A DNA stretch of 64,000 nt from Protoeuglena noctilucae (GCA_958009085.1 OY253677.1:744001-808000), one strand, 5' to 3'. Positions 17,693 to 19,896 are shown, counted from the stretch's first letter. The notes: generated from the letters alone by a model not told the origin. Translations and numbers: made by a program.

Positions 17693-19896
17693 TCAGACGA
17701 GGGCGGGCTTGCCGGCGTCCTGGCCCTTCTTGGCCTCGCCCTGCTGACGGTTGAGCTTGTCGAGCACGTTGCGCGCCACGTGGGCCGACTTGACGCCGCT
17801 CATGAACATGGCGCCGAACGTGGGGCCCATGCGGGGGCACTGGTCGAGCGTGGCCACCTCCATGCCGGCCACGACCATGCCCGGCACGATCTCGCGCGTG
17901 TGCTGCACCACCTGCGCCTCAGCCGCGTTCATGTCCAGGGCCGCCATGCCCTTGAGCTCCGGCACCATGCCCAGCGACGCCAGGCGCTTGACTGCGGACA
18001 CAGGGAAGGGGGTGGGGTGGTAAGGGGAGGCAGCTGAGCTGAGCTGAATGGGTGAGGGAGCGGGAAGGGGTGTGTGTATGAGGCAGTAGTGGCAAGTGGC
18101 AAAAAACAAGAGTCGCCCCGTCTCCGCGGCTGCTCCACATGCATCCGCATGCGATTTGCGCATCTCCTGCGCACGCACCCGAGCACGCGCCCATGGGGCC
18201 GTCGTGGCCGCAGGCGCTGATGACGACCTTGGCCTCCATCACGTTGGGGTCCATGCACATCTGGGGGACACGAAGACATGAGAGCAAGCGGTGACGGGGG
18301 TTGCAATGCAACCGAACCTGGGTGCTCCAGGTTGCGACCCGTCAGCTAGGCCGACACTGCCCGCACACACGGCGGCCGCCCGTCCCTGCACCCGCCCAAT
18401 GGCGCACAGGCACTCGCTGCACCGGCATTCGCGGCACACACACGCTCAGCACTCGCCTGGGTGTCGTGGTTGAGGGATACGAGGGTCCAGTTGGTGACCA
18501 CGCCACCGACGTAGTACCCGCCGCGGGCCTCGTCGTGGCGCACCACGAGGTCCTCAGCGGCCGTCGCGTTGAAGAGCTTCACGTTGGGGCGGGCCAGCAC
18601 CTTGGAGAGGAGGGTGGAGGTGGCCTGGGCCGCGTGGCGGACGACCACGTAGTGCCCCTCGTCCTCAAACGGAACGCCGATCTCCTCCAGGAAGAGGTGG
18701 GCCGGCTTGCGGACCACCATGGCCGACATGAGCTGGCCGCCGAGCCTGGGAGGGAGGGGAGAGGTGAGAGGGGGATGAGAGGTGAGAGGCGAGGGGAGGA
18801 GACGGGAGGACGAGAGGGAGGGAGATCAGAGACGGGCTAAGGAAACACAGGTCGAAAGAGGAACGCAAGTGACTGCTGGTGAGGCGCAGAGTGTCCGATT
18901 GTGGTGGGCTGAGGGTGTGCGACAGTGTGCTGCATGCGCGTCTCACCAGGCGCCGCCGCCAGGGGCCACGCCCGCCTCGATGATGGCGATGCGGAGCTTC
19001 TCGTCCTTGCTGAGCTCGTACGCCGCCGCGAGGCCTGGGCAGACGAGCTTGGACATTGTTGGGAACATGGGCGATGGCAGATAGGGAACATGGTCATAAT
19101 GGCCACCAGCACACCGCAGCCCTGGAACCCGCAATAAACCACAGTCTTGCAATCCGCATTACACCGCAGCACAGCCACGAATCGCGCTGCTTAGTGTTCA
19201 CCCGCAGAGCCGGCGCCGACGATGACGGCGTCGCACTCGGCGAACTCGTCGAGGTCCTTCATGTAGCGGCGCGTCATGGCGCGCGAGACCTGTTGCGGGA
19301 AATGAAGAAGAGCGGCACTCCCTTCGCACGTGCTAACGTGATCAGGTTCGACGGGTATTTCTCAGCTCCCGACAGGGCGAGCCTGTCGGGGCACCCCGGG
19401 CCGTTTCAGAGGTCAGATGCTGGGCGGACGGACGGAAGAGGGGCAGAGGCGTTCGCACGTGCACGGCCGGGCGCGCTGCGGGCGCCGCGCTCACCTCCGC
19501 CTCGCGGATCGCCTCGAACTGGTAGTCATCGAACGGCGTGGAGTTCACGCCGAGCTGGCTCCACTGCTCGCGGTTCAGCGCGTTGGCCTGCACGGGCGCG
19601 GCCATCGCGGTCCGGCGCGCGGCATTCTGCGGGGCGGCGGGGGCAGATGGAGTGTTGGGAGGGGCAGGCGTCTGGACGGGCCAACCGACAACCGATTCCC
19701 GGGGAGCCGCCCAATCGCAGCGCACGCGACGAAGCCGAAATAGACGCGGGGAAATAAGCTCATCGCGATGCACTATCAGGCGTTATATACGCTCCCGCGC
19801 CCGCTGCGGGCCGGGGTGGCCCCGAGCACTTACCCGCTGCTGGACGGCCCGGCCGGTGAAGGCGGTGACGCCGAGGACGCTCTTGGTGGCAAACAT
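17693..19896 (-). CDS. THI4: Thiamine thiazole synthase (THI4/THI1), Cys-type, with transit peptide
   Basis: [88 protein letters not shown]. Confidence 0.96.
19313..19403 (-). ncRNA. TPP riboswitch aptamer in THI4 intron 2 (intron 19290-19494)
   Basis: Minus strand reads GGGGTGC-CCCGACAGG CTCGC CCTGTCGGG-AGCTGAGAAATACCCGTCGAACCTGATCACGTTAGCACGTGCGAAGGGAGTGCCG, with the conserved CTGAGA, ACCC..GAACCTGAT and GCGAAGGGA core motifs. Confidence 0.95.

Follow-up and report, generated by a model that had tools for sequence, protein, structure and literature searches.

A thiamine pyrophosphate aptamer with an internal alternative 3' splice site and stop codon in a coding intron of THI4 from Protoeuglena noctilucae

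Riboswitches that bind thiamine pyrophosphate (TPP) and control splicing are known in fungi, plants and green algae. Here we describe a predicted member of this group in a 64,000-nucleotide (nt) stretch of Protoeuglena noctilucae DNA (GCA_958009085.1, OY253677.1:744001-808000). The whole stretch is called the window, and positions are counted from its first letter. The element is a TPP aptamer located in the second coding intron of the thiazole synthase gene THI4 on the minus strand, and it contains an alternative 3' splice site that is used in the messenger RNA (mRNA). As set out below, the intron probably works as a thiamine-repressed splicing switch.

Previous work is cited by PMC accession, in each case for the excerpt that bears on the point. 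In THIC of Chlamydomonas and Volvox, a TPP switch with a stop codon is located in a coding intron (Croft et al. 2007, via excerpts of PMC3597705, PMC10226581 and PMC9544697). The window shares with THIC an aptamer-bearing intron between coding exons, an alternative splicing event that decides whether an in-frame stop is retained, and an alternative 3' splice site inside the aptamer. On the other hand, the gene here is THI4, the acceptor lies in helix P3 instead of the P2 'AGGG' of THIC, and the layout is a plain 93-nt extension of the next exon. The Chlamydomonas THI4 switch is positioned upstream of the start codon and acts via a uORF (upstream open reading frame), as described in an excerpt of PMC12371167. 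Meanwhile, chlorophyte THI1/THI4 aptamers are placed in the 5' untranslated region (UTR) and those of embryophytes in the 3' UTR by the survey excerpted from PMC11521341. The window has the gene and the aptamer family in common with Chlamydomonas THI4 and with the 5' UTR switches of three metagenomic loci (L002, L001 and L004, see below), and in each the presumed repressed form keeps aptamer sequence. These THI4 switches also have in common a proximal acceptor within the aptamer and, judged by sequence, a distal acceptor beyond it. However, the 5' UTR switches work with a uORF, whereas the putative switch in the window interrupts the coding sequence and leads to a premature stop.

More distant arrangements have been described as well. 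The fungal 'Type III' switch, which is predicted only, combines two alternative 5' splice sites with a stop upstream of the aptamer, according to the excerpt of PMC5882874. Similar to it, the window has an aptamer in an internal intron (200-400 nt in fungi), an in-frame stop and a product that would be truncated when TPP is bound. Unlike it, the window combines a single 5' splice site with two 3' splice sites, and the stop is inside the aptamer; the alternative form differs at the 3' site, not by two 5' sites with a stop between them and upstream of the aptamer. Plant and moss THIC/THI1 switches have the aptamer family and an acceptor inside the aptamer in common with the window, but they occupy the 3' UTR and exert their effect by way of 3'-end processing and mRNA stability (excerpt of PMC10226581). 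'Mid-gene' aptamers are mentioned for prasinophytes, without detail in the excerpted text of PMC4260697. Full-text literature searches gave no account of a riboswitch in a coding intron of THI4, while overlap in details with Croft et al. 2007 is possible. New in this locus are the combination of THI4 with a coding intron, the acceptor in P3 instead of P2, and the use of CUGAGA as a stop codon.

The aptamer (19301..19408, minus strand) was identified by Rfam cmscan as TPP riboswitch RF00059 with a score of 62.0 bits against a gathering score of 54.3 (E 9.3e-10), covering positions 1-105 of the 105 in the model. It was the sole gathering-level Rfam match in the window. Helix P1 is formed by CGGC (19403-19400) as its 5' strand and GCCG (19316-19313) as its 3' strand, and the pairs of P1, P2, P3, P4 and P5 are all present in the cmscan alignment. 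The conserved motifs are CUGAGA (19365-19360), CCUGAU (19346-19341) and GCGAAGGGA (19327-19319). CUGAGA is regarded as the pyrimidine sensor and ACCUGAU ... GCG.AGGGA as the pyrophosphate sensor (excerpts of PMC9544697 and PMC5882874). When nine THI4-linked aptamers (that of the window and eight others) were compared, the window aptamer kept 36 of the 36 invariant columns, which take in CUGAGA and the ACC.GA...GCG..GGGA block. The aptamer is genuine, and its sequence predicts that it binds TPP. The original prediction had located a complete aptamer at 19313-19403 and had suggested Infernal with the Rfam TPP model as a check; the above-threshold match agrees with it, and the interval extends exactly from one strand of P1 to the other.

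The gene model of THI4 was drawn by eye and by script and then tested against contigs, proteins and Pfam. As mapped, the transcript spans 17567..20156 (minus strand) and contains 8 exons and 7 introns. Its start codon is 19896-19894 and its stop codon 17695-17693, and a poly-T loose end in run X2 places the poly(A) site near 17567. Assembled contigs from four runs (X1, X2, X5 and X10) were compared with 17500-20300. The runs containing the THI4 locus are marine metatranscriptomes, and the G+C content of the window is 65.8%. All seven intron joints are present in a single spliced metatranscriptome contig (run X5, record 10), and the coding introns measure 207, 205, 167, 201, 196 (GC-AG) and 187 nt by its joints. 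The contigs of X1 and X10 were colinear with the DNA throughout, X10 possibly being the source assembly. The translation of 346 amino acids (aa) is identical to database protein P0121, which is recorded on 7 contigs. In addition, the Pfam Thi4 family (PF01946, cut-off 26.2 bits) matched exon 3, exon 5 and exon 7 with 33.1, 118.5 and 60.3 bits, respectively. The nearest named protein is that of the green alga Pedinophyceae sp. YPF-701 (84% over exon 5), and the other named matches belong to trebouxiophytes, further green algae and fungi. Taken together with the marine runs and the base composition, these matches identify the source as a marine green alga of high G+C content.

The aptamer intron (19290..19494, minus strand; 205 nt, GT..AG) comes second among the coding introns and third in the transcript as a whole. 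It separates coding exon 2 (19495..19626, minus strand), which ends with ...FEAIREAE in phase 0, from coding exon 3 (19202..19289, minus strand), which reads VSRAMTRRY...GAGSAG and forms the start of the Pfam Thi4 domain. The X5 joint skips 19494-19290, and the aptamer thus sits in an intron that is removed from the productive mRNA. The productive acceptor AG (19291-19290) and its pyrimidine tract CUCUUCUUCAUUUCCCGCAAC together occupy 19290..19312 (minus strand); the AG is 22 nt beyond the P1 3' strand, and exon 3 begins at 19289. This joint between two coding exons confirms the earlier assignment of the aptamer to a coding-region intron of THI4, and it uses the very acceptor, 19290, that had been expected about 20 nt behind the aptamer. 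The 5' UTR of this gene also contains an intron (19904..20124, minus strand; 221 nt, GT..AG, joint in X5), ending 7 nt ahead of the start codon. However, the cmscan search of the whole window gave no Rfam match in it (20124-19904). The Chlamydomonas THI4 aptamer is found in a 5' UTR intron, while THI4 of the window has an intron there but no aptamer match in it.

Intron 2 holds 10 AGs, and each was tried as an acceptor. Use of the AG in the 5' strand of P3 (19383..19384, minus strand; GACAG before the cut, GCUCGCC after it) joins exon 2 to 19382 and adds 93 nt to exon 3. Of the 10, this AG alone gives a tail of ARPVGS followed by a stop, the latter being the UGA in the universally conserved CUGAGA (19362..19364, minus strand). 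Two proteins on record carry this tail: P0122 (71 aa) reads MFATK...FEAIREAE plus ARPVGS-stop and stems from one Joint Genome Institute (JGI) contig of 1481 nt, whereas P0124 (43 aa), which begins MAAPV..., also ends with IREAE-ARPVGS-stop and stems from a separate JGI contig of 994 nt. Because only 19383 yields this tail, the 19383 acceptor is really used. Hence, an alternative 3' splice site inside the aptamer gives a non-productive form, longer by 93 nt, that stops after 71 codons. A further protein, P0003 (277 aa; one JGI contig, 1481 nt), extends from Met70 (MTRRYMKDL...) to the normal C-terminus. It is spliced over introns 3-6, so its contig is complementary DNA (cDNA), and it begins at Met70 because this is the next AUG in the frame of exon 3 after the CUGAGA stop. 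Among assembled cDNA contigs, at least 2 carry the alternative form, versus 7 for the full-length product. An acceptor at P2 'AGGG' has been used as a mark of function (excerpt of PMC9544697); the window has CGGGG at this position and lacks any AG between 19420 and 19384. In sequence terms the internal acceptor appears in effect displaced by about 15 nt, from P2 into P3.

The original prediction had proposed a choice of 3' splice site coupled to truncation. P0122 and P0124 bear out this kind of event, but at a different site, since the acceptor is 19383 and the stop is that of CUGAGA. The pyrimidine-rich acceptor that had been proposed upstream of the aptamer, CCTCTTCCGTCCGTCCGCCCAG (19420..19441, minus strand), does exist; its AG is 19421-19420, so the G lies at 19420 and the earlier end at 19421 has to be corrected. 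It has the best pyrimidine tract of intron 2. As had been claimed, a retained intron and a splice to the 19420 acceptor both keep the frame from exon 2 (phase 0) to the UGA inside CCUGAU (19342..19344, minus strand), which is the first in-frame stop met on this path; none occurs before the aptamer. TPP might steer splicing to 19420 or block it altogether, with this UGA as the stop, and the good tract and the open frame are in favour of such a route. For retention, an X2 contig (record 7, 232 nt) is moreover colinear from exon 2 into intron 2 up to 19356. However, intron 1, intron 6 and the 5' UTR intron are likewise covered in part by colinear X2 pieces, of which one is on a polyadenylated contig. 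Because these unspliced pieces span other introns too, that in intron 2 does not represent specific retention, and the colinear pieces are general unspliced RNA or DNA. Exon 2 extended by the retained-intron reading was used to search proteins (51-165 aa; 6 candidates). This search was suited to catch both the 90-aa product via 19420 and the 115-aa product of retention, and it found only P0123. The reading frame of P0123 starts inside intron 1, and it was therefore called on unspliced genomic DNA. Furthermore, the 19420 junction was in no contig of runs X1, X2, X5 and X10, and both recorded alternative reading frames use 19383. Retention or 19420 use as the regulated step is thus unlikely.

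We estimate a probability of roughly 0.6 that coding intron 2 of THI4 works, via its P3 acceptor, as a splicing switch repressed by thiamine. The pre-mRNA has a single 5' splice site (19494) and two 3' splice sites, a distal one at 19290 and a proximal one at 19383. Splicing to the distal AG removes the whole aptamer and leads to the 346-aa enzyme. Splicing to the proximal AG keeps 93 nt of the aptamer, so that translation reaches the UGA of CUGAGA after six codons and yields the 71-aa product. TPP binding would presumably shift the choice to the proximal site, and high thiamine would therefore turn THI4 off: the longer mRNA with a stop at codon 72 would be formed at high thiamine, and the productive mRNA at low thiamine. 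As four exon junctions follow the stop, the longer mRNA would be a likely target of nonsense-mediated decay. Both the dependence of the splice choice on the ligand and its direction are suggested by analogy with the Chlamydomonas and plant switches, in which the acceptor is in P2.

The opposite direction was also considered. In an ON switch, the compact TPP-bound aptamer would hide the internal AGs and draw an upstream branch point near the distal acceptor, so that TPP would favour the productive mRNA, while the relaxed ligand-free RNA would expose the P3 acceptor. The distal acceptor is only 22 nt past P1, and a branch point at the usual distance would therefore fall inside or upstream of the aptamer, which is consistent with such a model. 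Nevertheless, an ON switch would answer thiamine excess with more of a costly single-turnover enzyme, the TPP switches on biosynthesis genes described in the excerpts of PMC9544697 and PMC3597705 repress, and P3 is paired in the predictions whether or not the rest of the aptamer is included. We thus consider an ON switch very improbable.

For the thiamine-repressed switch, a possible route from ligand binding to splice choice was looked for in the intron itself. A candidate anti-aptamer element (19449..19472, minus strand) can pair with the 3' side of P5/P4 (19338-19320); without TPP, 19472-19449 may pair in this way and loop out the proximal site. An 11-nt direct repeat, GCACGUGCGAA, which contains a palindrome, has one copy in this element (19462-19452) and the other in the aptamer (19333-19323). 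RNAduplex gave a pairing of 9+4+3 bp with -25.6 kcal/mol. A pairing this strong was also obtained with 70 out of 2000 dinucleotide shuffles, with 33 out of 1500 mononucleotide shuffles and with 68 out of 1671 neighbouring windows of 35 nt, which puts the modelled likelihood of a chance pairing at 2 to 4%, so the element is suggestive only. Pairing of P4/P5 with a distant element in the ligand-free state is a principle of fungal and plant switches (excerpts of PMC5882874 and PMC10226581). The complementarity of the 5' splice-site region was at chance level both to P3 (equalled by 834 of 1500 shuffles) and to the whole aptamer (1178 of 1500), and that of the distal tract to P3 was not above chance (100 of 1500). 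The minimum-free-energy fold of 19520-19270 had a z-score of 0.80 and is uninformative in such G+C-rich RNA. The productive AG is mostly unpaired in the predicted ensemble.

Several observations weigh against the proposed switch. The 19383 junction was in no contig of runs X1, X2, X5 and X10; however, assembled contigs lose rare variants, so neither the contig negatives nor the protein search with the retained-intron reading exclude rare forms. P0122 and P0003 are probably two reading frames of one cDNA contig, which is deduced from the equal size of 1481 nt. The proximal AG has no pyrimidine tract of its own and is base-paired throughout the predicted ensemble (unpaired probability 0.00), although this pairing is no objection by itself because the P2 acceptor of known switches also sits in a stem. 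The anti-aptamer complementarity exceeds the background of 66% G+C DNA only marginally. The motif YTRAY occurs in intron 2 at distances of 123 nt and 52 nt from its 3' end, while only 2 of the 6 other introns have it in their last 100 nt, both at about 80 nt from the 3' end; a branch-point model was for this reason dropped as support. Finally, diatom TPP aptamers of good sequence are reported not to regulate in the excerpt of PMC9544697.

The diatom case, in which predicted TPP riboswitches were unresponsive to thiamine (same excerpt), may have a counterpart here: the aptamer may no longer regulate, the longer form may be constitutive noise at a cryptic AG, and THI4 may be controlled elsewhere. 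In line with this, the alternative form is in the minority, with 2 contigs versus 7 for the full-length form. On the other hand, all conserved ligand-contact motifs are intact and the score exceeds the Rfam threshold, the cryptic site and its stop both lie inside the aptamer, and the layout of proximal and distal acceptors parallels that of the related 5' UTR switches. We therefore regard a loss of regulation as decidedly unlikely, and prefer the thiamine-repressed switch.

The position of the aptamer was then compared among other THI4 genes. A metagenome scan with exon 5 gave at least 80 THI4 loci with 65-78% identity, with no close relative among the matches listed. A covariance model built from the 9 aptamers was run on the 80 listed loci and found an aptamer in 30 of them, always on the strand of the gene. 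In 25 of these 30 listed loci the aptamer is upstream of the conserved F.PIRE codons. It is clearly upstream of the first in-frame Met of a reading frame uninterrupted through IRE..SRAMT in 23 of the 25, and is therefore in the 5' UTR; the other two are L054, which is ambiguous at the start codon, and L021, whose SRAMT was not matched by the pattern. In the remaining 5 of the 30 listed loci, which are low in G+C and moss-like, the THI4 match is followed by the aptamer about 0.9-1.1 kb further downstream. None of the 30 aptamer-bearing loci among the matches listed has the aptamer between IRE and SRAMT, i.e. at the intron position of the window. The survey agrees with the excerpt of PMC11521341, in which the chlorophyte aptamers occupy the 5' UTR and those of embryophytes the 3' UTR. 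As for the protein collection, the closest relative is P0006 (86% identical, from a genomic contig of 5683 nt). Its reading frame also starts at a Met just past this intron position, which is a hint of conservation.

The nearest metagenomic THI4 loci display the 5' UTR arrangement. Genomic L002 is distinguished from transcript L001 by an intron of 121 nt, which uses the aptamer's P2 AG as its acceptor. In L002 (990-1262), L001 (54-210) and L004 (47-190), the 5' UTR intron ends at the aptamer P2 'AG'; in the spliced form, the end of exon 1 stands in for the P1 5' strand, and the mRNA is still scored as a full-length aptamer, with 69-71 bits under the 9-aptamer model. All three have a short uORF that begins at an AUG in the L5 loop (AUAAUGCC), and a further AG just ahead of the start codon could be the distal acceptor. 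We tentatively suggest that the aptamer in the window is its own complete expression platform, in which the P3 acceptor and the CUGAGA stop would form a 93-nt 'poison' exon extension without separate regulatory sequence. On this tentative reading, which we hold as quite possible but somewhat short of an even chance, a green-algal THI4 switch moved from the 5' UTR to the coding region, lost its P2 acceptor and was independently rewired.

Other introns of THI4 showed some features of their own. Coding intron 5 (18261-18456, minus strand) is of the GC-AG type (GCGAGT...CAG), which is backed by the spliced X5 contig. Intron 4 (18746-18946, minus strand) has a long C/T-rich 3' end with repeated CTC/CCT-rich units (..CCTCTCACCTCTC..), and its final 80 nt are free of AG. 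An origin of the 7 introns from repeats or introners was considered and rejected, as blastn against the window gave only matches of at most 41 nt with E values of at least 0.009. Relative to the window, the spliced X5 contig has a 15-nt in-frame insertion at 17707 in the last coding exon, X1 has a one-base difference at 19904, and both X1 and X10 have one additional C at 19680 in intron 1. These differences are strain-level variation or, at 19680, assembly error.

Directly upstream of THI4 and on the same strand, a multi-exon gene (20288-24150, minus strand) contains matches to PF08543 and PF02581. The hydroxymethylpyrimidine phosphate (HMP-P) kinase domain (PF08543, E 5.4e-42) is encoded by 21171-21743 and 22200-22560 (minus strand), and the thiamine monophosphate (TMP) synthase domain (PF02581, E 4.4e-67) by the last exon (20288..21010, minus strand). 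We take this neighbour to resemble the bifunctional TH1. Only about 130 nt separate its stop codon (20290-20288) from the point where the mapped THI4 transcript begins (20156). Two thiamine-pathway genes, that for TMP synthase/HMP-P kinase and THI4, are thus arranged head to tail in a eukaryote. Further upstream, the open reading frames in 22704-24156 had no Pfam match, and an assembly gap of 200 N is present at 29289-29488.

Riboswitches are scarce in eukaryotes, and what is known of their expression platforms comes from a small number of model cases. To these the THI4 locus adds a compact arrangement with both the alternative acceptor and the stop codon built into the sensor. It shows that the internal acceptor of an aptamer can differ from the P2 'AGGG', which serves as a mark of function in the excerpt of PMC9544697, and it does so in a gene whose green-algal aptamer is put in the 5' UTR by surveys (excerpt of PMC11521341). 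If the intron is thiamine-responsive, its 205 nt would provide algal engineering with a small and portable cassette for making coding sequences vitamin-repressible, and the ratio of the two junctions would be a marker of the thiamine status of a marine alga in metatranscriptomes. If the reading of a self-contained expression platform is true as well, it would show that a eukaryotic riboswitch can be moved among intron contexts and still regulate.

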